DNA of 35,257 nucleotides from Sanchytrium tribonematis (Eukaryota), in contig JADGIG010000037.1 in NCBI GenBank assembly GCA_018985235.1, positions 1 through 35,257 on the forward strand. The letters run 5' to 3'. The stretch's first letter is position 1. Each line of letters begins with the position of its first letter. The notes under the pieces were generated by a model. It had not been told where the DNA came from. It saw only the letters and a program-made list of their open reading frames with translations, and searched no databases. The translations under genes were made by a program, and so were the position numbers. Shown here piece by piece: positions 5,749 to 35,257 of the stretch.

Positions 5749-7969
5749 ATGTTCCAAATTTCTAAAGTACCGCAAGACCATTGGGCTTTTACAAATTTAC
5801 TATACTTAAATAGCGATGATGCTAAAAAACTAGTGCCCGACATCAAACTTTTTTACGCGGAATTAAATGTTGCTAATTCCAAGTTTCTATTTACCTGCAC
5901 ATCTGATCCGACTATTGCTTCCAAAGAAATCGGAACAAATTTGCTACAAAGGAAATGGATGAACAGCCTTTTAGGGCAGTCAGTTGAAGCTAAAGTAGTT
6001 TCTATTGAGCATGTCTTGACTTCATTATCCTTCGAAATATCGCTCACAAAGAGGCAAACTGTTAAGCTAGACAGCACACAATTGAGTACTTCAATCGCCC
6101 AGCTATTTAAAAATCACACAATAAGTGTAAATCAACCATTGATTGTTGAATATCAAGGCATAAATATGATCTTGACCGCTCGCGAATTACAATCGGCTAC
6201 TGCAAAAGATCTGTTGAGCAAAACGAGCAGCCAGACCAATACACAATTTGGAATTTTACAACTAACCACAGAAATTCAGTTCTCACCTGCTCCTGATTGT
6301 GGCATTCAATTAACTGGTCAGCATATGCAACACACGAAACTAATTCAGCCAAACTTCAAATTCGAAGAATTGGGAATTGGTGGTCTTGATAACGAATTTG
6401 CTGGAATTTTCAGAAGAGCTTTTGCTTCAAGAATTTTCCCACCATCAATCATTGATAAACTTGGTATACAACACGTCAAGGGAATACTTTTATTCGGACC
6501 ACCTGGTACGGGTAAAACACTAATGGCTCGTCAGATTGGAAAGATGCTCAACGCAAAAGAGCCGATTATTGTTAATGGCCCGGAAATTTTGAACAAATTT
6601 GTTGGACAAAGTGAAGAAAATGTGCGAAAATTATTCGCAGCGGCCGAGGCTGAATACAAGGAAAAGGGGGAGGCCAGTGGGTTGCATATTATTATTTTTG
6701 ATGAATTAGATGCCATTTGTCGACAAAGAGGAGGAAAGCAAGATGGGACTGGAGTTGGAGATTCCATCGTAAATCAGCTTTTGGCGAAGATGGACGGTGT
6801 TGAACAATTAAATAATATTTTATTAATTGGTATGACCAATAGAAAAGAATTAATTGATGAAGCCTTATTACGTCCTGGTCGATTGGAAGTGCATATGGAA
6901 ATTGGGTTACCAGACGAAGCGGGAAGACTACAGATTTTAAAAATTCATACCACTAAAATGACAAATAACAAAATGTTGGGCACAAATGTAGATCTGAAGG
7001 AATTAAGCCAATTGACGAAAAACTTTAGTGGTGCTGAGATAAATGGTCTAGTGAGAAGTGCTACAAGTTTTGCGTTTAACAGGCATGTCAAAGTTGGAGA
7101 GCAAGTAAAAGCAGATTTAGAAAATATATTGGTTGAAAAAAACGATTTTTTGTCCGCCTTGAATGAAGTACAAGCTGCTTTTGGAAGTGACGAGGTTGAA
7201 TTATCAAAGTGTTTTGCAAATGGAGTCATCTCCCTCCCAGCAAGTAATCAAATTCTTTCTCAAGGTGAATTGTTTGTCAAGCAAGTCAGAGAGTCTACAA
7301 AAACTCCATTAGTGTCTCTTCTGCTTCATGGGCCACCTGGAACGGGTAAAACTGCATTGGCAGCAAAAATTGCTTCCCTAAGCGACTTTCCATATATCAA
7401 ATTTATTTCATCAGAGACAATGGTAGGCTACAACGAGCAACAAAAAATTAGGGAGATAACCAAGATTTTTGAGGATTCATATAAATCCAACACTTCTGTG
7501 ATCGTTGTTGACTGTATTGAAAGATTGCTGGGTAGTTATAATTCATGTAGAATGGGTAAATATTGGGCCAAGATTTTCGAATTCTGTGTTACAAACGTTG
7601 CTCGTGTTGCTAAAGAAACAACCACCAAAAAACAGAAGACTGCTAACAATTTGCACCACCTCATATCGCAATGTATTACAACAAATGGATATGTTGGAAG
7701 CATTTACTACAGAACTTTATGTTCCGCCAATTTATGATTTGAAAACTATTTCTGTTGTTGTAAATGAAGTCCGACTTCTCGAAGACACCCAAATGAAAGA
7801 TCTTCTATCTCAATTACAAAGTAGCGGAGTTCCATATGAGTATGATGTCAACGCCAAGTTTGCAATCGGAATTAAAAAACTGTTACAATTGACAGAAACA
7901 GCCAGGCAAAGTTCCGACAAAGTTTTAACACTGACAGAGACTGTTCTAAGAGCCAGCAGAGATATTTGA
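5749..7969 (+). CDS. SEC18: Vesicle-fusing ATPase NSF/Sec18; exons 5749-7531 and 7551-7969 (733 aa)
   Basis: GIGGLDNEF, IFRRAFASR, two GPPGTGKT P-loops, IIIFDELDAIC. Splicing restores DCIERLLE-WVNIGPRFSNSVLQTL. First ATG is 5749. Confidence 0.96.
7532..7550 (+). other. 19-nt spliceosomal intron (GTAGTTATAATTCATGTAG), phase 1
   Basis: Removal restores the conserved NSF D2 motif ERLLEWVxIGPRFSN. Confidence 0.93.
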
Positions 7970-13149: not shown

Positions 13150-15655
13150 CTGGTCTTTTGAAAATATAAACAAATAATAGAAATCAAAAACTTGTGTAAT
13201 TTCTACTTCTATTATAATTTGCTCATTAGTACCTAAATTAAATTTTTGGTTTTTAACGACCTGAAAGCCTTGGCTTGGGCTAAATACTTCGAAGTCTGTT
13301 AAACTTAAATTGTTGGTATATAAGATTCTCTAGATAAATATTAAGTACCTTTCTATAAAGTTTTCTTTTAATTTCAAATGTCTTGCAAGACTTCCCCACT
13401 TCCATAACAAATTTGATTCTTAAAAATCTCAACGGCTGCGAAACAATTGTTTGTTCAAAGCAATGATTTTTGAAAATTATTTTCGAAAGATCAATTTTTG
13501 TTCCGAATATTTCCTTTTCTTTGTGAAAAATCAGTTCAGAAGGACTTATTTTGACTTGCTTTGACTCCAATAATTTAATTATAAAAATATTTGTGACAGT
13601 ACCTAATATAGGTGTAATTACTATAGGCTGAGTAAACATACTTCGGTGAATTTTCAGCTTGCTGATAACTGCAACATTAGTTTTATAAAACACATTATCA
13701 TCAAATTGTCCTTCGATTTCCAAAATGTCATCCTCAGACATGCTTTTACAAGTCACTTTAACCTTGTTTAATTTCGGGAAAAGGTTGTACGTTAAATTTT
13801 TAACATCGGTTGAAATATGAAAAGGTTTCACAGAAATAAAAGTGCTCGAAGAGCCAGACGATTGAAGCTTATGAATTGGCACGCAATAAATAGGAGACTC
13901 GTTGCATTTTGTAGTGAGCTCTCCATTTTGCCAAATATTAGGCAAGTTTGATGATGCCTGTTCTCCCGGAATTAAAATGTTTTCCATATATTGAATAGGG
14001 CCGTAAAATTCAATACAGTGTTGCTTTCTTTGCGCCTCGATGATATCATTAACGGTTACCTCTGGTATATCAATAATCTGATTTAAATTAATTAAATCCG
14101 AGGTCTTTGAATCCAACCGCAACAGCTTTGAACTTTTTATCTCAGGCACTAATTCACATTTGGTTCCAATTTTTATAATAGTGTGATCAGCGACAATCAT
14201 AATAGGCTTTTCTACTGCAATATTATAAAATTTAGTACCAACTATATCGTAATTATTCGATAATTCTGTGAAAGAAAAGAAAAAGTTACTAGACAAAAAT
14301 GGAAATCGAAATACCAACACACCAGAACCAATTTTAAATTCGTTATTAACTATTACAAGACCAAAATGAGGACAGTCAACAATCACTTCTGCGGAATGCG
14401 GTAGGTCTGGATTTTTAGCAATTTTTTGAAAATCTCCATTCGCGAAATCCAAAGTGTCATAATTCGTGTTACTAATATCTATTACGCTAGTGAGATTATC
14501 AATCGAACCAGATTCATCTTTGCGGAGATCATAATGGTATGATGGTAATATTTCTTCCTTTCGTCTAGGCGAACCACGAGCGGGAGCAACTGCTTTCATT
14601 TCTACTTGGTGATTTTCAGTAACATTTGGTTCATCCGGGGTCTTGATAAATTGGTCACTAGTCAAAATATTACTAGGCGAGTTTAAATTTTCCTCCAAAG
14701 AAAGACGCTTAATTTGGGGTATAGTTGCTATCTCAATGGAACTATTTGTCACACTGTTTTCCACAAAACTAATGTTCTTGTCTAGAATGAGTGCCTCTTT
14801 TACAGGCTCTAAGGAAGGCTTTTTCTTGATCGTTCTTCTTCTCACAACAGGACTATTTCCAGAAACATCATCTTCAGACAAGACGTATTTAACTTCTATA
14901 TCTACATTATCAAATATTGGATGGGCTTCAAATGCAAAGGGAGTTTTGATTTGAATAAGATGCGACAATTTTTGGTCTTGCGTCAAAGCACACCATCCTA
15001 GTAACATTCTAAATTCTTTTTTATCCAAATCTGACAGATTTTCATATGTGCTCTCAAGAACTAGGAATAGATGACTATTTTCGGGAATAGAGAAAACGGA
15101 TTGCAAATTTATCATAACATAATGTTGTTCATACAAATAGTCTTGGTAGACAACTATAATGTAATATAAATCTCTGACATGTCTCGGATCTTTATGGAAC
15201 TTTTTAACTATATCTAGGGCATGGGTTTTATTGTATGAAACTGATTCTAATTTTAATTTTATTTTCTGTAATTCTGGAAGTTTACTAAAAATAAATGATA
15301 TTGGAAGAATGGTTGACATTTCAGAAACTTTGAATTCTAGCTCATGTTGCGTCGCTTCTAATTCAAATAGTGGTTCGAATAATAAAACTCGGCAAGTCCC
15401 TGGATAATAATTAAGTAACGATTGTTGAATATTAAGTACGTAAAAACCGAAAGAACACATATCCAAGGAAGTGAATTCTATGACAATAACTGGATGATTC
15501 GTGACAAATTTTAATTCCAAAGGCAATTGCAAATCCTTTACAAGCGTGTGACCTATAAATCGTCTTGATGTGAGATTATACATACTACAGTATGCTTTCA
15601 AAAATTGTCCCGCGACATTAGAACCCAGATTTCCAGTAATTGATATTGAATACAT
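13117..15655 (-). CDS. NPHP4: Divergent nephrocystin-4 (ciliary transition-zone protein); exons 15655-13349 and 13329-13117 (839 aa)
   Basis: N-terminal MYNLTSRRFIGHT, HPVIVIEF...SFGFYVL and YYPGTCRVLL resemble NPHP4 FFDxxxRHFFGRT, CGFGIL and YHGTPRALL. The spliced C-terminus KTFEI..KRILYTN...LFIFSKDQLCEEIKFIVK resembles NPHP4 KAFEI..KRITYTN...IYINDxEDKNEE. Confidence 0.75.
13330..13348 (-). other. 19-nt spliceosomal intron (GTACTTAATATTTATCTAG), phase 0
   Basis: Matches the consensus of the other introns; removal opens a 70-codon terminal exon with NPHP4 C-terminal motifs. Confidence 0.85.
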
Positions 15656-15699
15656 ACAAGCAATTAAGTTTCAAGAATTCTCCTATATTTATTGACAAA

Positions 15700-16560: not shown

Positions 16561-16722
16561 TTTTACAAATTGCTGTCACAAGGAGAACAAACCACGATTT
16601 TACTTCATATTGTGCATCAATAATTCTTCATCTTAGTTATTCTTTTACCTTTCATGTACACAACAAAGGCGAATTAATGAGGAATGGGGTTGGAATTGAA
16701 ACATCATTCATTTTAATTAACC

Positions 16723-18447
16723 ATGCAAATATTAGGAAAAGGAGCCACCAGCAATGTGTATTTGTTGAAAAGAAATGATAGCAAGTTCGCGTTAAAAACA
16801 AATCCGAGTGTTAGAGAAGTAGAATTTTTAAAACGTACTCAACATTCAAACATTATCAAATTATTAAATAATCACCCACAGGGCATTATTTTGGAGATAT
16901 GTGCGGGAGATTTACAACATGTGTTTGATTCTCATATAAATATTGACCATTTGATTGATTTATGGATGTTTCAATTACTAGATGCGCTTTCCTACTTGAG
17001 CTCGAACAATATTGTTCACAGAGATGTAAAATTAGCCAATATACTGCTTAATGAAAATTTTGACGTAAAGCTTAGCGACTTTGGACTAGCAATCGATTCA
17101 AATGAATCGGTAGAACTCTCTGGCACTCCGAATTATTTATCCCCCGAATTGTTAAAAAGACACGCTCCATCACATAAAAGCGATGTTTATGCGGCAGGAG
17201 TCTGCTGCTTTGCTTTACTTACAGGCCAATTACCATTCGAAGGAGGAACAGCTAAGCAAACCTTGACTAATATTGTAAAGCAGAAATGGAATCCTAGCTT
17301 AGTTCCTTTACCATTTAAAAAATTAGTGATGGACATGATGAATGTAGAAGTCAAGGCAAGAGTCGATGCTCAGGAGTGTATCAGCAATGGGCATTTTTGG
17401 CGACTACATACACCTTTGGAAACAATGTTTATTTCACCTTTTACAAAGCAACTTTTCGATAATCATATTGCTGTCTTAAAAACAGGAGATATAATACTTC
17501 GAAATCCGGGTTGTGTCGTTCATGTAAATGGGAGTGTCACTATGTTGCATGAAAATTTAACACTTCCATTTTTTGATTCTTCTCAAAGTGAAAAGCTTTT
17601 TTCATTTACAGCCCCTGCTCTTTTAGAAATATTTTCAGAAGGCAAAACATTATCATCACAATGTCTTACCTTGGAAGCCAAACAGTCAAAACGCATCGCT
17701 GTTGATGCTGCTTCAAAATTGTATAAAAGGTATCATTCTGTCACATTTGAAGGAACAACTTTTAAAGAATTGATACCCGATATTGATATTTTTAAAAATT
17801 TTAAAAGAGACACTTCTTGGAGAGCCATATTGTGGAAAAACGATGATTTTCATTTTCGCCTTTATGATATAATAGTTCGTTTTGTGCGTTCTAGTGAAAT
17901 TATTGAGGTTTATGAACCGCTGATCGAAGACGATTCCATATTAAATGTCATGCGTGATGCATCCAATTTTACTTCCAAACCTTTCATTTTTAATAGGAGT
18001 ACTCAGTTTAGTGTGCGAGGAATTCCGTTGGAATATAAATTATTAATTAACATCGCCCAAGCGGCTTTAAAAAAATGTTTGCAAGTCAAAGTTCCTGCAA
18101 GTCCCGTATATCAGAGTATCAGGAAAATAAGTTCTGGAACAGAAATCCTGGAGTTGCCAATCTATCATCCTTCATCTGAATTTGTTGATGGAATTGGATG
18201 GCTTATACAAATTCCTGGAGATCGTGGACAAATCACGGTTGAACTTTTGTCATTAAAAGGTGAAAGAGTAAGAATTATAGATGATTTTGTTTTGACTTGG
18301 AATTTAAGTTGCCAAGAAAACTCAGACTTACCTGCTAATCTAGAGAGCCTTTCGGCTCTTAATCCACAAAGAGAATGTTACAAGGCTTACAAAAAGAACG
18401 AGATACCCGATTATGTAAAATGGTTTATTCAAAAATTTAGAAAATAA
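16723..18447 (+). CDS. PLK4: Polo-like kinase 4 (SAK), centriole duplication kinase
   Basis: Kinase motifs HRDVKLANILL, DFGLA, GTPNYLSPE; cryptic polo box (PLET..ISPFTK..IAVLKTGDI, AILWKN.DFHFRLYD); PB3 (FVDGIGW...IPDYVK). Confidence 0.82.
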   Translation: MQILGKGATSNVYLLKRNDSKFALKTNPSVREVEFLKRTQHSNIIKLLNNHPQGIILEICAGDLQHVFDSHINIDHLIDLWMFQLLDALSYLSSNNIVHRDVKLANILLNENFDVKLSDFGLAIDSNESVELSGTPNYLSPELLKRHAPSHKSDVYAAGVCCFALLTGQLPFEGGTAKQTLTNIVKQKWNPSLVPLPFKKLVMDMMNVEVKARVDAQECISNGHFWRLHTPLETMFISPFTKQLFDNHIAVLKTGDIILRNPGCVVHVNGSVTMLHENLTLPFFDSSQSEKLFSFTAPALLEIFSEGKTLSSQCLTLEAKQSKRIAVDAASKLYKRYHSVTFEGTTFKELIPDIDIFKNFKRDTSWRAILWKNDDFHFRLYDIIVRFVRSSEIIEVYEPLIEDDSILNVMRDASNFTSKPFIFNRSTQFSVRGIPLEYKLLINIAQAALKKCLQVKVPASPVYQSIRKISSGTEILELPIYHPSSEFVDGIGWLIQIPGDRGQITVELLSLKGERVRIIDDFVLTWNLSCQENSDLPANLESLSALNPQRECYKAYKKNEIPDYVKWFIQKFRK

Positions 18448-27542: not shown

Positions 27543-30500
27543 ATGGAAATATTAACAAGCCAATTGAAATCATTAAAATATAGCAATCAAATAAACATAT
27601 ACATTGATAAAATGGAAAGGCTAAATGGCGATGAAAAGCTAGAGGAAGACATCGGTAGATTTGATGAAGATTGGATCAGGAAAGAATTGATGTCTGATGT
27701 AGAGGCAGATGCAAGCTTGGAAAGAAAACTCTTGGCATATTCAAAGCTTTTGAAAACCTGCGAGCAAATCAAAGGTAGTATAAATGATATGGAATTATTG
27801 AAAGTCTGCAACAGTAAAGAAATGACAGCTAGACATGGAATTCTTATTATTCAGCTTCTTATTCCTTATTTAAATTATTTGGAACTTTACCCTGACAAAT
27901 CTCCGAAACTTATTTCCAGTTATTACGAGGTTCTTCACCAAGGCTGGGCTACATCGCGATTTTTCTCAAAAGACGAAATATACGTAGGCCTTATTATAAA
28001 TCTAAGAAATGTGATCGCACCTAGACTGCTATTGGTATCTAAAGATATTTACCAAAATCCCAAGGCAAGTCTGAATTTAATAGATTCAATCTTGTGTTCT
28101 TTAAAGACATACAAATCAGCATATTTGGAAGTTCGCGAAAATATAGAGAAAAACGGCAAAATAATAAGATGGGAATTCGATCAGAGCTTGCTCTTTGAGT
28201 ATTCCAGTTATTGTCAAGATATTTTAAGTGATATCAAGCATATTTTAGTTGTCCTAGAACGAATAGAAGCGACATTGGATTCTGAAATGAAGTCATTTAC
28301 TGGTGAAGCCTTGTCCATTGACGAACTTCTTAAAAAATCCTTCAAGATAGCGTCTGCATTTGAACAAGTGGCATTTGACATATGGGACAAGAAAAATAAA
28401 AACACCTGGAAATTAATGGTGAGAAGATTTGACGACAATTTGATTCATATTGAAGAAATGATTGTCCAATTCATTTCAAATTGCATCCGAAAAACAAGTT
28501 CAAGTTTTGAGACTCTTCAAATTTTAGAGAGTTGTGCAAAATTCAATTCTTTGGAGTCTGTTAAAAGATTGGCCAATGAAGGTTTGAAACATCTCATTTC
28601 CGATTTTCATATAGAAGTTTGTGATGCACACGTCAAGTTCGGAAAATTGTTGAATCAAGAGAAAAAATTGTGCTCCTTTGACGAAATTTTTAAGCTTAAA
28701 AAAGATTACGATACATACAAGAAAGTTATGGTAGTTTTAAGAGGCAATAAAGCTATTGAATCGGCTGAAGGTAAAATTTTATTCGACAAGTACATCAATT
28801 TTTCAGTGGTCATTAAAAAGATTCATGACAATGGTTGTGTTCTATTTCATCAAAACGCAATTGAGCAGTTTAAATCATTATTGTCCTGGAAAATTTTAAA
28901 TGAACAGAGTGATGGACAATTAGGTGTCAATTTTCCATTTGCTCTTTTTGATCTTGTCAAACAGATCAAACAATTCGAGACATTTATTACGGATCTTCCT
29001 TTGGATTTACGGGTTATCGAACCACAAGTTCTCCAAGTTTCTCAAAAGTACCAGAAGCTATTTGCTACAATACAAAAGCTCAACAAGCTAAAAGCCGGTT
29101 TTCAATTTACTGATTCATGGCTGGCAAATGACCAGATTAAAAATATGGATTTGGTGTGTAATACAGGTCTTTTGCGAATGACATGGTGCTCGCTTTCTAT
29201 CGAGACTTATTGCGAAACTCTTGAACGAGAAATAGTATCTGTGGCTAGTAAACTTTCTCAAGCTAGAAAAACCTTACACATGATAGATAAAAAGATGTCG
29301 AGCTTAAAAAAAATCATTGAAGAAGTAAGTGGTTTGTGCGTATACGCAATTTTTGATGAAGTGCCATTGAAATTCAAACTAATCTCAAAAAGATTTCTTG
29401 ATTGCACTTTGACTACTCAAAAAGATTTATCGAGTATTTTGAGTAGCATTCCAAAAGTATTTTTAAAATCTGAAAAGGACCCGCTTTACATTCAGCTATG
29501 CATTGAGATTGAAAAGAAATTTTATTTGTCGGTGGAATCAATTTTGGCTAAATTTTTTACCAAAATTGCGTCTGATATTAAGTTGAAGAGTCGAATTCCT
29601 ATCAAATTATCTCTTAACGCCAAGGGTCATGTAACAACCAATCCTGCCTCAGCTGTTATTAAAAAACAATTTGATGCGCTTCCAACTTTGATTTTGTCAA
29701 ATATGGAAAAAGTTTTGAGATGGAAAAAAGGCTCATGCATGGTTGTTCCAAAGAATTTAAATGAGTTTTACAATTTTAAATCTTCTCTTTCTTGCAGTCG
29801 GGTATTTAAAAAAACTTTGTCTAAATACTATAAAACTATTGGAGAAATAATTCAAGCCACAATTACAGACGTGGAAGTATTGCTAACATTTCAGCATCTA
29901 TGGAAGATTGATGTTGATAGTATAAAAACTGGGAATTTGGAGTTTTCTGAAATGGCTGTTTTCATTTCAAATCTTTATGACTACCACTTTAATTTGCTTG
30001 ATAATATGGCTTTGTTGGAATTAGAAAATAGAGTCTTGAGTCTGGGAGTTGACGAATTTAAAAGTTTGTGTAAGATTAATTCGAAAAAACAACTCGGGGA
30101 AGTAGCCTCTTATTTAATTGGCAAAATAATAAGCAGTATCAAAGAAAATTTTGTGAAATTAGAGGCTCTTGGGTCAGTTGAAATTCGAGACGTAGATATT
30201 CTTGAAGACTTCAAAAGCTATTTTAAAATTATTCAATATTGTAATACAGTGGATCAAAACAAATGCAATATATACTTTTTGAGTGAAGTTTGCTCTATTT
30301 CGACTTTATTCATGGATAGCAGCTCATTTCAGTCATCAGCAAGTGAATATTCATGTCTATTAGACACAAAATTGAAGCAGATTGACAGATATTTTCCATT
30401 AGCAAATTTGCTTCAAACACTAAAATTGAGATTAGAGAAAGAATTTTTAAAACTAGAAAAAATTGCAGAATCTGTCCTGGAAAAGCATCAAACGATGCTG

Positions 30501-33500
30501 GTTTCAGCTTCTAGTTATCAAGAAGCTTTAAAAATTTATCAAATGTTTGAGAAAGAATTTAGCTTCATGATCGAGAATTTGCGGAAACTCCAAAAGATAG
30601 GCGACGGTGTCTCTTTAGAATTGTCTTTCAAATTTCCACAAAGCAAAATTGCCCCGAAAGACGAACTGGTTCAATTTTTGTTGAGTTTTTCAAACTTTGT
30701 TAATCGAGTTGATTCCTTAATTTTTTCAAATTTTCAATCTATATTTCTGCAAGAGTGTCAGGAATTTGAGATTTGTAGCATCAAATTGTTTAACAAATTT
30801 GGATTCAAATTTATTCAAAACTTAATAGTTGAAATCCATACTTATATTAAATACCTAGAAATATTTGAAGCTTTGCAGAATGCACGTTTTGAAATGAGAC
30901 ATATAAAAAAAATATCGAGGGCTGTTCAGGTAAATGATATCTCAGAACTTCATTTATTAGGTATTATGTCAATCGACCCAGGCTTAATAATCGGTGCTAT
31001 TCACTCAGAGAAAATTTGGCATGCTAAGGAGAAAGACATTGAGGAGAAGTATTTAAAAATGGCTTTCACAATCTCCAATATTTCTGTCAAAAAAGTCCGA
31101 TCGAAAATATTCTCTGTCGCTGTAGGTAATGCTGCAGAAATAAAACAAGTTTTTGAGGAAATTGCGACAGAATTAGCAATGTTGCTTTCCTTGGATCAAA
31201 GTGAGTTTATAAGAGCAGAGGTGATAGCTGACAATGAAGAAATTTCCTTTGTTTCTGAGTTCGTTCAATACATTGATGACATTCAGTCTGAGATCGAATC
31301 AATATACACAATAATACAAAATTTAATTAAAAGTGAAGAAAAATTTCAGGAAACTATGACCCTTCAAAGCTGTTTATACAGAATCGTAGAAAAATTAGAC
31401 GATTACGAGTCTTTGTTTTTAATGTCAAAAAATGATAGGTTAGAGGTTTTGAATCTCAAAAAAAAAGTATTTTATCTCAAAACTCAGGTATTCACGGACT
31501 TAGACCAGTTTAGAAACACCTTCCCAAGATTCTGGTTACTTTCGAATGACGAATTAATTAGAGTTTTATCGTTTTCATTTAAAAAGGACTGGTTTGATAC
31601 GTTTAGGCGTATTTTTAATGGGGTCGAAAAATTTGAATATAAATTAGAAGGTACTAATATATTTATTACATCGTTAATTAATCAAAATAACGAAGAATTG
31701 AAGATCCCTTTTGAAGTTGCCCTTACCTACTCCAATCTAAATTGTTTTTCTAGTCTCATTCTTGCTATGAGAATTGGATTGCGAGATCAAATTTTAAGCG
31801 CCGTTAATCTCCTTCAATCTGGATCTGTGGAGGAATTGTTCGCGCAGAGTAGCTCCGCTCTCACTGTTGCTCTGAGGTTTTGTTCATCCAAAGATTACCT
31901 CAGACCTCTCTCAGATATTTTGCTTAAGCAATTATTAACTCGGAAGGAAGCTTTTACTATAAAAAAATTAGAGAAGATGCATATTGATGTTTCTAATGCA
32001 AAAGAACTTTCTAATTTGTTCGAAGTTGAATCCGTAGACAAAAAACTAATTATACGGTTCACAGACTGCGAGCTTGAGCACGGTCTGGAGTTCAAGACAT
32101 GCTCTAGAATATACTGTCATACTCCGCAGACTGTGAAGCTTTTTTCAAACTACTTTGTAGACAGAGTGAAAAAAAAGTGGACTTATGTCCTTGGCTTAAG
32201 TGGATCTGGTAAAACCGAAGGAATTCAAGAGTTTTCAGATTATTGTGGGTACTTTTGCTATGAAGTAAATTGTGGAGATGTTTTAAGCGGACAGTCTCTC
32301 AAAAATATTTTAAAAGGATCAGAATTTTCCAATTCTTCTTATTGGGTAAATTTGAGCGAAATTAATCGGCTCTCTCAAAATGTACTAATTCAGCTTTCGG
32401 AATCAATTCTGAGTTTCAAAGTAGGAAACGGATCCAATGTGTTTGTTAGTCTGAATCCTTATTCTCAATCTAGAAATGTTATTCCAGAAAGTGTTAAATT
32501 CCAATTTCACCAAATAATTTTAGAAAAACCTCCAGTCGTGGAAATTTATTTCAAAATGTTAAATGCACCAGTGTTTAAATCAAAAGACCACTCGTCCGCT
32601 ACCTTGCTTTTGCAAAATTCCAATTATTTAGACTCTTTTCATACGCGTGACACTTATCCTGGTATATTTTTAAAGTTATTTCAAATGTATATGGATAATC
32701 CCAATAACGGAATTCCAGCCATGCAAACTTTCGTTCACTCTGACAAAGCCAAAGTTATTTATTTAGAACCTTCAAGAATTCAATCCAAGCTTGACAATAT
32801 GATTCAATTTCTAGAACGATTTCATTCGCTAGTCTTGGTTGGTTCATATGATGACGCATTCAGCAAATATATTAATGACATAACGTCTTTTTACAAACAG
32901 CATGGCGATGTGAAATGCCAAATTTTGAATCCAAATATCAATGATTCTTTCGAGAATTTTGGCTCAAATGACGAGTACGATGTTTTTACGTCCGGTGTTA
33001 TAACCACTTGTCTTGAATTTGGCTGCAAATTTAATGGGACCTATTTGCTTATATTGGATGGCGAGTTACACTCGGAATGGTCAGAAAATTTAAATTCTGT
33101 TTTAGATGACTGCAGGTCACTTATTTTTCCAGACGGAAGAAAACTGCAAATCAGCGAAAACGTCAAAATTATATTTTGTACCTCAAGCTTGAAAATGGTC
33201 TCCCCAAGTGTCACCAGGCGTTCTACTGTAGTTTTTGTAGACCCCGAAATTGTCGATGACTTTTGGATTGTTAATTACCGGCGCCTGAGGTCTGATCACA
33301 AATTCTTTGATTCTGACATATCCTTGAGCGCCATAGTTCATTTTTATAGCAAGCTTAATTTCCAAAATTTAGCCTCAAAATACTACTCTTTCTGGTCATT
33401 TACCATGTTCGATACATATTCCGAATTCGAAAGTTACTTTGACATGGAATTAAGTTCAGATTTTGAAGAAATACAGAAATCAATTCAGACCGACATAGTA

Positions 33501-35257
33501 TTTGACCCACCTGGGAATGAGTTTAAAAACTCGGATCATGTAATTAAAATCTATCCTAGTACTTCCGTTAATGATATCATTGAAACGCTAAGACCACATA
33601 TTGTTTCTATCGGTCGAGATATTTGGCAGACTCATAAACTGGGTGGAATTTCCTTAAAATTGGCTGACATAAATCATTCTCAGGATGTTTCTCTTTTTTC
33701 ATTCATACGGTCTTATAAGAAGTATAATACAATTTGGAATAAAAATGATAATGAATGGTTAGAAAAGCGTGTCAGTAGACTGGATCTAATGTGCTCTTTC
33801 AGTGTATTGAGCGATTTAAATCCAGAATTTCGTCGACTTTTAAGAAGTGAAATATTTGTCAAAAATCAAAATTTTCTAACTTCCCGCCAAAGCCGATTTT
33901 ATTATGGATATGGTACGCTACCCGACTTTGAGGATTGTGTTGATTGTTTTGATTATGTTAGTCAACAAGGAATAATATTCGACTTCTCAAGGGATCGTGA
34001 TTTCATTCTTAACCAAAAGCGGTTTGTATTTGATGTTTTGACCAGAAAAAGGCAACCAATTACGAATCCAAATTTAAACTATTGTATTTTGATAGGAAGA
34101 ACTAAATCAGATTTAATGCTACTGAAGGAGGTTTTCGGAGCAGATACCTTTAAAAATTATATTGAGTCGATTGAAGTTTTATCAGACGTCCGACAGGAGA
34201 TTATTTTTGTTAAAGACCATTTGAACGAGATGCAGTTTCAAGAGTATGTTTCGATGTTGACATTAAAATGCGATATGCTTGCATTTGTAAAGCCTCTGTA
34301 CTTTGGTTGCAAAAGCTTTTTTGTTGACATATTCGGTAAGGAAACTGCCTCATTGGCCAATATTTTGGAGAAAATTAGGACGCTTGTAAGAAACGTTGAA
34401 TCTAGAGAAAATTGGCTTGCTCAGCAACAGCGACAAGCCCGTTTAGAATCTGAGAATCTTACAAATTTAAGACTCGACATTGGTCAAAAAACAAAGTTTA
34501 TTGATGACAAAAAGTTGATAGCATCTTTGAAAGAAAAAGAGATTAATGAAAGCAGATCCAATATTGAGAGTCAAAAACAGATTTTAGACGAATGTGTTCA
34601 AAAAAGTATGCCAGTTTTGCAGTCTGCAAAGCGGGCTCTATCTAATATTAGCTCATCGGATATCACGGAACTGAGATCTTTTAGCAAACCCCCCTTAGAT
34701 GTCCAAAGAGTGGTCGAATGTATTACAGTTTTATTAAAAAAGGATGATTCATCGTGGAAAGCAGCAAAGTCAATGATGTCGAATGCAGATTTTCGAAATA
34801 ATTTGATGAATTTAGATTTTGATTCACTCACTCATCATCAGATTCATAGCATTGAAAAGATCATGAAATCCTCTGAATTAAGTCCAGAAAAAATGAAAAA
34901 GACCTCTTCAGCTGGGCACGCTTTGTTGGAGTATGTAATTAGCATTCTGCAATATCATTACATCATGACTGATATGAAACCCAAAATTAAACAAGTCGAT
35001 GAATATGACAAGCAATTAGCAAAACTCATTGAGAGCAAAGAGCAAGTTCTCTTCGATATTGAAGATTTGGAGCAAGACATTTTGAACTTAAAATTGCAGC
35101 TTTTATCTTTGGAAAAAAGTCTTTTGATTGTTGACAAGAATATTGGTCTTTGGCTAGAAATTGAAAATAAGCTGAATTTCTTAAGATGTCAATTTGATAT
35201 GATAACAAAATTGTGTAATGCCAAAATATCTATATTTGATAGAATCTTGCTTTCAGT
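27543..35257 (+). CDS. DNAH10: Highly divergent axonemal dynein heavy chain, DNAH10 (inner-arm I1/f alpha)-like; more than 2570 aa, runs off the window
   Basis: Same frame from ATG 27543 to the window end; no + strand fragments appear in the ORF track, consistent with an unbroken frame. Motifs RWEFDQSLLFE, LRWKKGSCM, FPRFWLLSNDELIRVL, AAA1 GLSGSGKTE, LDGELHSEWSENLNSVLDD, and MTBD ITELRSFSKPP.VQ.V.ECI...WKAAK.MMS...F..NLM.LDFDS. Confidence 0.8.
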   Translation, partial: MEILTSQLKSLKYSNQINIYIDKMERLNGDEKLEEDIGRFDEDWIRKELMSDVEADASLERKLLAYSKLLKTCEQIKGSINDMELLKVCNSKEMTARHGILIIQLLIPYLNYLELYPDKSPKLISSYYEVLHQGWATSRFFSKDEIYVGLIINLRNVIAPRLLLVSKDIYQNPKASLNLIDSILCSLKTYKSAYLEVRENIEKNGKIIRWEFDQSLLFEYSSYCQDILSDIKHILVVLERIEATLDSEMKSFTGEALSIDELLKKSFKIASAFEQVAFDIWDKKNKNTWKLMVRRFDDNLIHIEEMIVQFISNCIRKTSSSFETLQILESCAKFNSLESVKRLANEGLKHLISDFHIEVCDAHVKFGKLLNQEKKLCSFDEIFKLKKDYDTYKKVMVVLRGNKAIESAEGKILFDKYINFSVVIKKIHDNGCVLFHQNAIEQFKSLLSWKILNEQSDGQLGVNFPFALFDLVKQIKQFETFITDLPLDLRVIEPQVLQVSQKYQKLFATIQKLNKLKAGFQFTDSWLANDQIKNMDLVCNTGLLRMTWCSLSIETYCETLEREIVSVASKLSQARKTLHMIDKKMSSLKKIIEEVSGLCVYAIFDEVPLKFKLISKRFLDCTLTTQKDLSSILSSIPKVFLKSEKDPLYIQLCIEIEKKFYLSVESILAKFFTKIASDIKLKSRIPIKLSLNAKGHVTTNPASAVIKKQFDALPTLILSNMEKVLRWKKGSCMVVPKNLNEFYNFKSSLSCSRVFKKTLSKYYKTIGEIIQATITDVEVLLTFQHLWKIDVDSIKTGNLEFSEMAVFISNLYDYHFNLLDNMALLELENRVLSLGVDEFKSLCKINSKKQLGEVASYLIGKIISSIKENFVKLEALGSVEIRDVDILEDFKSYFKIIQYCNTVDQNKCNIYFLSEVCSISTLFMDSSSFQSSASEYSCLLDTKLKQIDRYFPLANLLQTLKLRLEKEFLKLEKIAESVLEKHQTMLVSASSYQEALKIYQMFEKEFSFMIENLRKLQKIGDGVSLELSFKFPQSKIAPKDELVQFLLSFSNFVNRVDSLIFSNFQSIFLQECQEFEICSIKLFNKFGFKFIQNLIVEIHTYIKYLEIFEALQNARFEMRHIKKISRAVQVNDISELHLLGIMSIDPGLIIGAIHSEKIWHAKEKDIEEKYLKMAFTISNISVKKVRSKIFSVAVGNAAEIKQVFEEIATELAMLLSLDQSEFIRAEVIADNEEISFVSEFVQYIDDIQSEIESIYTIIQNLIKSEEKFQETMTLQSCLYRIVEKLDDYESLFLMSKNDRLEVLNLKKKVFYLKTQVFTDLDQFRNTFPRFWLLSNDELIRVLSFSFKKDWFDTFRRIFNGVEKFEYKLEGTNIFITSLINQNNEELKIPFEVALTYSNLNCFSSLILAMRIGLRDQILSAVNLLQSGSVEELFAQSSSALTVALRFCSSKDYLRPLSDILLKQLLTRKEAFTIKKLEKMHIDVSNAKELSNLFEVESVDKKLIIRFTDCELEHGLEFKTCSRIYCHTPQTVKLFSNYFVDRVKKKWTYVLGLSGSGKTEGIQEFSDYCGYFCYEVNCGDVLSGQSLKNILKGSEFSNSSYWVNLSEINRLSQNVLIQLSESILSFKVGNGSNVFVSLNPYSQSRNVIPESVKFQFHQIILEKPPVVEIYFKMLNAPVFKSKDHSSATLLLQNSNYLDSFHTRDTYPGIFLKLFQMYMDNPNNGIPAMQTFVHSDKAKVIYLEPSRIQSKLDNMIQFLERFHSLVLVGSYDDAFSKYINDITSFYKQHGDVKCQILNPNINDSFENFGSNDEYDVFTSGVITTCLEFGCKFNGTYLLILDGELHSEWSENLNSVLDDCRSLIFPDGRKLQISENVKIIFCTSSLKMVSPSVTRRSTVVFVDPEIVDDFWIVNYRRLRSDHKFFDSDISLSAIVHFYSKLNFQNLASKYYSFWSFTMFDTYSEFESYFDMELSSDFEEIQKSIQTDIVFDPPGNEFKNSDHVIKIYPSTSVNDIIETLRPHIVSIGRDIWQTHKLGGISLKLADINHSQDVSLFSFIRSYKKYNTIWNKNDNEWLEKRVSRLDLMCSFSVLSDLNPEFRRLLRSEIFVKNQNFLTSRQSRFYYGYGTLPDFEDCVDCFDYVSQQGIIFDFSRDRDFILNQKRFVFDVLTRKRQPITNPNLNYCILIGRTKSDLMLLKEVFGADTFKNYIESIEVLSDVRQEIIFVKDHLNEMQFQEYVSMLTLKCDMLAFVKPLYFGCKSFFVDIFGKETASLANILEKIRTLVRNVESRENWLAQQQRQARLESENLTNLRLDIGQKTKFIDDKKLIASLKEKEINESRSNIESQKQILDECVQKSMPVLQSAKRALSNISSSDITELRSFSKPPLDVQRVVECITVLLKKDDSSWKAAKSMMSNADFRNNLMNLDFDSLTHHQIHSIEKIMKSSELSPEKMKKTSSAGHALLEYVISILQYHYIMTDMKPKIKQVDEYDKQLAKLIESKEQVLFDIEDLEQDILNLKLQLLSLEKSLLIVDKNIGLWLEIENKLNFLRCQFDMITKLCNAKISIFDRILLS

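Follow-up and report, generated by a model that had tools for sequence, protein, structure and literature searches.

A shrunken I1-alpha (DNAH10) dynein heavy chain in sanchytrids that may act as a nucleotide-gated microtubule clamp

We analyzed a 35,257-nucleotide stretch of Sanchytrium tribonematis DNA (the window; assembly GCA_018985235.1, contig JADGIG010000037.1, forward strand). Positions 1 to 27400 hold very compact genes with short gaps, few short introns, and a GC content of ~35%. Pfam matches identified an AAA ATPase, an HSP70, an MRG protein, and a cytidylyltransferase (Table 1), none with an apparent link to dynein. A 796-aa open frame on the minus strand (positions 13280 to 15670) had no Pfam match at E values up to 1. 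A protein kinase on the plus strand (positions 16717 to 18447) carries ~350 C-terminal residues without Pfam annotation, a layout that we take to resemble that of polo-like kinases; a candidate of this kind is of interest in a lineage with reduced centrioles.

The remainder of the window is occupied by a dynein heavy chain gene. Its frame is free of stops from position 27429 to the window end, as a previous sequence-only reading of this DNA had claimed for a 7.7-kb open frame, and the ATG at 27543 agrees with the starts of the orthologues. At the given base composition, a stop-free stretch of 2,571 codons would arise by chance with a probability of ~1e-90. The motifs named in the sequence-only reading all lie where it placed them (GLSGSGKTE at 32193, VNLSEINR at 32346, QFH at 32502, VGSYDDAFSK at 32838, FDPPGNEFKN at 33501, IGRTKSDL at 34092, and MPVLQSAK at 34608), and GxxxxGK[ST] occurs a single time in the window protein. 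A Pfam scan, proposed in that reading as a check, returned DHC_N1, DHC_N2, AAA_6, and MT above the cutoff, in this order, and no other Pfam domain. The N-terminal extension of ~300 to 400 aa that is present in most of the canonical DNAH10 chains examined is missing from the S. tribonematis chain. The window ends before AAA5, AAA6, and the C-terminal region, which were examined in the orthologue P0002.

Table 1. Features of the window and domain layout of the dynein heavy chain
Feature	Position	Strand	Remarks
AAA ATPase	5749-7737		Pfam
HSP70	21385-22794		Pfam
MRG protein	24597-25376	-	Pfam
Cytidylyltransferase	26198-27373		Pfam
Shortened DNAH10 / I1-alpha heavy chain	27543..35257	+	2571 aa, frame runs off 3' end; complete orthologues 3221-3224 aa
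Tail DHC_N1, aa 103-556	27849..29210	+	Pfam E 9.5e-31; class HMM DNAH10-specific
Distal tail/neck, aa 557-1034	29211..30644	+	Weakly conserved: ~35-45% in most 75-aa windows, three orthologues
DHC_N2 including linker N-terminal part, aa 1035-1417	30645..31793	+	Pfam E 4.4e-13
AAA1 large domain (AAA1L)	32064..32567	+	Walker A K/T 32211/32214, glutamate-switch Asn 32268, Walker B Ser-Glu 32355/32358, sensor I Asn 32454
AAA1 small domain (AAA1S)	32568..32774	+	~60 aa shorter than canonical; Arg at sensor II position 32646 by alignment
AAA2 large domain (AAA2L)	32775..33251	+	P-loop GK lost 32856-32859; both hairpin inserts and AAA1's Arg finger 33219 kept
AAA2S-AAA4S remnant	33252..34289	+	~430 aa shorter than canonical; no P-loop; sequence profiles fail to recognize it
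Stalk coiled coil 1	34290..34610	+	Full length
Microtubule-binding domain (MTBD)	34611..34976	+	Most conserved part: 80% among sanchytrids vs 48% among canonical DNAH10
Stalk coiled coil 2	34977..35255	+	Cut by window end

Among 5.8 billion proteins we found three full-length close relatives (3,221, 3,221, and 3,224 aa; 49, 48, and 44% identity over 99% of the query), and the next match, cat DNAH10, scored 240 bits. The best orthologue, EP00835_P000250 of the sanchytrid Amoeboradix gromovi, is listed as complete and bears out the earlier suggestion of a sanchytrid-like lineage; the other two are ENA proteins. A set of 1.84 billion 50%-cluster representatives contained a single close representative (1,271 bits, with the next at 164 bits). 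No orthologue was confirmed in two metagenome scans. One 3.1-kb metagenome contig (L001:2190-2519) gave a weak 28% match to the tail and is probably an ordinary dynein fragment. Six proteins of 746 to 1,277 aa (P0179, P0184, P0195, P0218, P0250, and P0289) had four to six matched stretches each, with the microtubule-binding domain as the best match, and are possibly motorless multi-MTBD proteins. Our literature search, which had most subscription journals outside its range, found no description of the sanchytrid DNAH10 protein beyond an automatic label.

The DNAH10 class had been claimed from the microtubule-binding domain, with a phylogeny suggested as a check. In a tree of the stalk and MTBD (46 chains), the four sanchytrid proteins nest inside DNAH10 (support, 99/96), within its opisthokont part (97/99). 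AU tests on 28 of the 46 rows, covering DNAH2 and DNAH11 as alternatives, rejected grouping with DNAH2 (P = 0.0002) and with DNAH11 (P = 0.027). Class profiles, each built from four sequences, favored DNAH10 in the tail (149 to 170 bits versus at most 50 for other classes) and in the stalk (172 to 178 versus at most 106 bits). Human and bovine DNAH10 are among the three best matches in solved structures (E values of 4e-67 to 5e-64). A tail tree (33 rows) placed the four proteins in an open fork with DNAH10, outside DNAH2, DNAH5, DNAH11, and the cytoplasmic classes. The AAA1 profiles were nearly tied between classes, and the AAA2L profiles slightly favored cytoplasmic classes (53 to 59 versus 42 to 54 bits). 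A quick AAA2L tree, uninformative on class, gave the group a branch of ~9 changes per site close to the cytoplasmic dyneins. We read the cytoplasmic leaning of AAA2L as probable signal loss rather than as a chimera. Because the tail and stalk profiles and the stalk tree favor DNAH10, we accept on these sequence grounds that the chain is an inner-arm I1-alpha (DNAH10) heavy chain.

The sanchytrid chain has ~3,200 aa, compared to ~4,600 aa in complete canonical relatives, and is therefore ~1,400 aa shorter. The 805-aa span from the P-loop (GLSGSGKTE) to MPVLQSAK reported previously was reproduced (803 to 811 aa in the three orthologues). The norm of roughly 1,250 to 1,300 aa given there was also sound: the same motifs lie 1,278 to 1,309 aa apart in all six canonical DNAH10 chains with the motif (seven were tried, one without a motif match). 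The AAA1-to-stalk distance is 758 to 766 aa in the four sanchytrid proteins, compared to a median of 1,271 aa and a minimum of 960 aa in 261 other heavy chains, which are search matches and not a random sample. The 41 DNAH10 chains within this set span 1,192 to 1,328 aa, and the sanchytrid distance is the shortest among the 265 dynein heavy chains examined. The losses amount to ~60 aa between AAA1 and AAA2L and ~430 aa between AAA2L and the stalk. From the stalk start onward, the orthologue has ~950 aa, compared to ~1,425 aa in a chytrid DNAH10. Two dynein-2-like chains with canonical AAA1, P0223 (Blastocladiella emersonii) and P0097 (Ephemera danica), also have short AAA1-to-stalk distances (968 and 960 aa), which may be gaps in the gene models.

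Contigs from a DNA run differ from our sequence at 26 positions, 25 of them inside the frame, with no indel and no joint; these contigs are not independent of the assembly, because the run may be its source sample. The in-frame differences comprise 19 silent and 6 replacement changes and no stop. The resulting pN/pS of 0.079 (P = 2.6e-9) comes from one DNA run and stands alone, without a same-genome housekeeping baseline. The silent excess indicates purifying selection and agrees with the earlier view that the gene is retained by selection as opposed to drifting neutrally. The lengths of the orthologues differ by at most 3 aa despite identities of 44 to 64%. In 75-aa windows, identity among orthologues peaks in the microtubule-binding domain (78 to 81%), the AAA1 site (75 to 77%), AAA2L (77%), and the N-terminal tail (65 to 76%), and it drops to 33 to 36% over most of the AAA2S-AAA4 remnant and to 28 to 35% in parts of the post-stalk region. 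The identity of AAA1L is 78% among the four sanchytrid proteins and 76% among 27 canonical DNAH10 chains, compared to 28% between the two groups. The MTBD, which had rightly been called conserved and DNAH10-like, ranks highest in conservation (80% within the sanchytrid group, 48% among canonical DNAH10 chains, and 39% between them). The sanchytrid group sits on a very long stem branch. From this burst of fast change followed by tight constraint we infer a change of function.

AAA1 is the only strictly required nucleotide site of dynein according to an excerpt of PMC4879348, in which the catalytic set consists of Walker A, the Walker B Asp (for Mg) and Glu, the sensor I Asn, the sensor II Arg, and an Arg finger supplied by AAA2L. 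In an alignment to 27 DNAH10 chains, all four sanchytrid proteins keep the Walker A Lys and Thr, the Walker B Glu, the sensor I Asn, the sensor II Arg (in a less certain register, because it adjoins a deletion), the switch Asn, and the Arg finger of AAA2L. The Walker B Asp, present in 27 of 27 DNAH10 chains, is Ser in all four. Among 256 parsed motifs (nine others were unparsed), this Ser is exclusive to the sanchytrid chains; two other chains carry Asn and two carry Glu. The Walker B motif VNLSEINR, contrasted earlier with xCFDEFNR, is altered (Asp to Ser) but not lost, with the catalytic Glu kept. The change of LFR to QFH replaces Arg with His in all four proteins, although this Arg lies outside the AAA1 catalytic set as excerpted (PMC4879348). 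Loss of the AAA2 P-loop (VGSYDDAFSK) was correctly recognized: the Gly-Lys is gone in all four proteins, and the assignment is supported by the alignment. AAA1 is not eroded, and the broader picture of an eroded motor ring as a whole is not supported, given the 78% identity of AAA1L and a catalytic set complete except for the Walker B Asp. Because of this conservation, the AAA1 sequence points to a retained nucleotide function and not to a purely passive tether.

None of the four sanchytrid proteins has a P-loop motif after AAA1. The segments previously assigned to the AAA3 and AAA4 P-loops (FDPPGNEFKN and IGRTKSDL) do lack GK[ST], but their assignment is by position only and is not detectable above controls. 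Pfam AAA_7, AAA_8, AAA_9, D6, lid, and Dynein_C were not detected in the sanchytrid chain, whereas all are present in a chytrid DNAH10. When the AAA2S-AAA4 and post-stalk regions were aligned profile to profile, E values were no better than 0.26 to 0.54. When 17 local profiles of canonical segments were compared with 93 shuffled or reversed controls, only the linker N-terminal part (above controls in three of the four proteins), AAA1L, and AAA2L were clear and in place. One AAA5L profile score exceeded the control maximum in the wrong place, in the tail. Visual resemblances to AAA3L, AAA6S, and the C-terminal domain were set aside, as the local profiles were not above controls. An ESM Atlas search with the AAA2S-AAA4 remnant returned no usable match, and sequence profiles did not find AAA5, AAA6, or the C-terminal region of P0002. 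Judged from length only, the AAA4L insert appears to be absent. This insert bends the linker, and its deletion severely affects linker remodeling (PMC4879348, excerpt).

Structure prediction, also proposed earlier as a check, was done in two parts; both models are of low confidence and give no ring geometry. The first (aa 1440 to 2571; mean pLDDT, 53.8) has its confident parts in AAA2L and the stalk only, with AAA1 and AAA3-4 mostly below a pLDDT of 60. Its predicted AAA2L fold matches solved dynein (Z = 21.1; root mean square deviation [rmsd] of 1.9 over 159 residues), the whole stalk matches 3wuq (Z = 19.3; rmsd of 3.3 over 262 aligned residues), and the MTBD matches 6l4p_B (Z = 18.8; rmsd of 1.7 over 123 aligned residues). 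These matches are partly circular, because 27 of the 32 alignment rows behind the model are canonical. The second model (P0002 residues 2480 to 3221; four sanchytrid rows; pLDDT, 46.2) contains a pair of alpha/beta modules separated by a helical hairpin. The best 30 Foldseek matches listed for it are all dynein motors (best E value, 8.5e-9). This low-confidence model aligns in order to yeast dynein residues 3335 to 3899 (Z = 10.1; rmsd of 24.7 over 266 residues). AAA6L alone gave an rmsd of 2.6 over 99 residues, and its Z of 9.2 is equaled by unrelated AAA+ proteins, RFC among them. From the dynein matches of the second model, we read AAA5 and AAA6 as probably persisting as shrunken folds. A buttress may be present as well, judging only from the predicted helical hairpin in the expected place.

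Sanchytrids have been stated to be without axonemal dyneins (PMC8371127, repeated in PMC10459994; excerpts). The eggNOG table of the former paper (supplement file 4), as far as sampled, labels the A. gromovi orthologue DNAH10 with a score of 144. A term search of this table returned two axonemal chains scoring 3306 and 3572, entries for DNAL1, DNAI1, and DNAAF1, and automatic labels for CCDC39, CCDC40, GAS8, and WDR65. Two further heavy chains score weakly, and one weakly scoring chain is labeled unclassified axonemal. In rows 787, 1910, and 2012, NODE_73.p1 is the axonemal chain scoring 3306 and shares its eggNOG group with the DNAH10 orthologue, whereas NODE_259.p2 (106) and NODE_282.p1 (246, with cytoplasmic-type labels) score weakly; further degenerate dyneins are possibly among these chains. 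Within the same automatic table, term searches returned neither WDR63 nor WDR78 (I1 intermediate chains) and no tether name (WDR52, WDR96, or CFAP44), and no DNAH2 partner was identified.

The A. gromovi protein P0301 (EP00835_P001568) is an outer-arm beta-class chain of 4,328 aa with four P-loops, a DEFNR motif, and all Pfam motor domains. It is 79% identical to its ENA counterpart P0162 (P0162/P0300). This second copy and the matching residue composition make contamination less likely. Nor is the setting here a motorless flagellum, since A. gromovi encodes an intact outer-arm beta chain. Together, this chain and the shrunken DNAH10 conflict with the published loss of axonemal dyneins. Going by its sequence, the outer-arm chain suggests a motile or retracting stage that has not been seen. 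Sanchytrid pseudocilia are reported to be immotile, and zoospore axonemes have only four singlets.

The chain keeps its two ends (the tail and the microtubule grip) and one ATP pocket, and it has lost the parts that regulate the cycle and prime the stroke. In Chlamydomonas, I1-alpha has about one-eighth of the ATPase activity of I1-beta and no microtubule activation, and the role proposed for it is restraint of sliding (PMC3031465, excerpt). From the kept and lost parts and this low ATPase, we favor, at about an even chance, the view that sanchytrid I1-alpha is a nucleotide-gated microtubule clamp or brake rather than a stepping motor. The tail would dock on the axonemal or kinetosomal 96-nm scaffold (the docking site in the zoospore axoneme is uncertain because of the four singlets), and the microtubule-binding domain would grip a neighboring microtubule. 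Binding of ATP would close the pocket formed by AAA1 and AAA2L and could loosen the grip via the remnant AAA5/AAA6 and buttress, while the Asp-to-Ser change would slow hydrolysis. Most of AAA4 appears to be gone, and with it the insert that bends the linker; the linker would therefore not be primed to make a full power stroke. Such a chain would form a cross-link that can be released and that either limits sliding or keeps the reduced microtubule bundle together, taking further the restraining role that has been proposed for normal I1-alpha.

As a tentative alternative to the clamp, the chain could be a slow motor, minimal yet still working, which might, for example, help retract the pseudocilium. 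One ATP site, linker, stalk, and buttress would suffice, and the accessory sites of AAA2-4 would be dispensable. The full-length stalk, the six catalytic or switch positions and Arg finger kept in four of four proteins, and AAA1L conservation at the canonical level (78% versus 76%) all fit such a motor. It is harder to reconcile with a Ser in place of the Mg-coordinating Asp and with the absence of ~430 aa from AAA2S-AAA4S and ~60 aa from AAA1S; none of the 261 other dyneins is as short here. The tether of the sequence-only reading, a static nucleotide-insensitive strut in which the tail and MTBD link two microtubules and AAA1/AAA2L serves as a rigid base, seems unlikely. A surface Glu, an Asn, and two Arg residues are invariant in four proteins that are 44 to 64% identical, and structure alone should need none of them, although the altered Walker B, the highly conserved microtubule-binding domain and N-terminal tail, and the reported immotility of pseudocilia would suit a strut.

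Redeployment outside the axoneme, e.g., as an anchor between the long kinetosome and lipid droplets, mitochondria, or the nucleus, appears quite improbable. A new role is suggested by the very long stem branch and the return of conservation after it, the sampled A. gromovi table does not return the I1 partner names, and the sanchytrid paper proposed exaptation of the flagellar base. However, the conserved tail segment is a DNAH10-type DHC_N1, and labels of the 96-nm ruler persist in the same table. The extreme divergence from canonical dyneins could also be that of a decaying relic or of an assembly or gene-model artifact. This explanation is largely refuted by the deletions and lengths shared by four proteins and by the silent excess (pN/pS of 0.079), and with a 7.7-kb open frame and contigs without indels it can hardly be credited.

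Compared to the I1/f alpha chains (human DNAH10, 8j07_k8; Chlamydomonas 1-alpha, DHC1), the sanchytrid chain has the same tail type, stalk, MTBD, and domain order and the same AAA1 catalytic set except for one residue. It also recalls the low-activity restraining role proposed for 1-alpha (PMC3031465, excerpt). It differs in being ~1,400 aa shorter, in a Walker B of SE instead of DE, and in the lost AAA2 P-loop. DNAHX, a nonmotile heavy chain of sea urchin sperm that holds ATP without hydrolyzing it, is likewise kept despite an altered AAA1 site; as described in the excerpted part of PMC11785096, it is an outer-arm duplicate with insertions, a disrupted stalk and MTBD, and variable AAA1 motifs. 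In contrast, the sanchytrid chain has an I1-alpha origin, deletions, an intact stalk, a highly conserved MTBD, and fixed AAA1 motifs. Membership in the DNAHX subfamily is ruled out by the origin, the deletions, and the stalk. Human DNHD1, an orphan chain, is also a degenerate heavy chain with a flagellar role, but excerpts of PMC8754002 and PMC11785096 describe it as devoid of catalytic residues in Walker B and carrying insertions, which by description sets it apart. The diatom Thalassiosira has a reduced dynein set with intact outer arms and builds an axoneme only for gametes (PMC2239267, excerpt). The diatom has lost all inner-arm chains, whereas sanchytrids keep a shrunken I1-alpha and have no known swimming stage. 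Nonmotile heavy chains (DNAHX and DNHD1) and outer-arm-only diatom flagella were thus known before; the origin and anatomy differ here.

The sanchytrid chain is a deletion experiment made by nature, bearing on which ring parts link ATP to the grip on microtubules, and it can be expressed and assayed. We consider it possible, if doubtful, that this is a naturally minimized, still-cycling dynein with one nucleotide site and a Ser-Glu Walker B, which together with the outer-arm chains and the 96-nm ruler would imply an unseen motile or retracting stage. If so, most of AAA2S-AAA4 could be removed from a dynein ring, and a flagellar stage would have gone unseen in a phylum for which loss of axonemal dyneins has been described. 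The findings correct the picture of flagellum loss in fungi. Flagellar reduction in sanchytrids looks like selective repurposing of parts rather than simple decay, and this view gives a reason to seek a motile stage.
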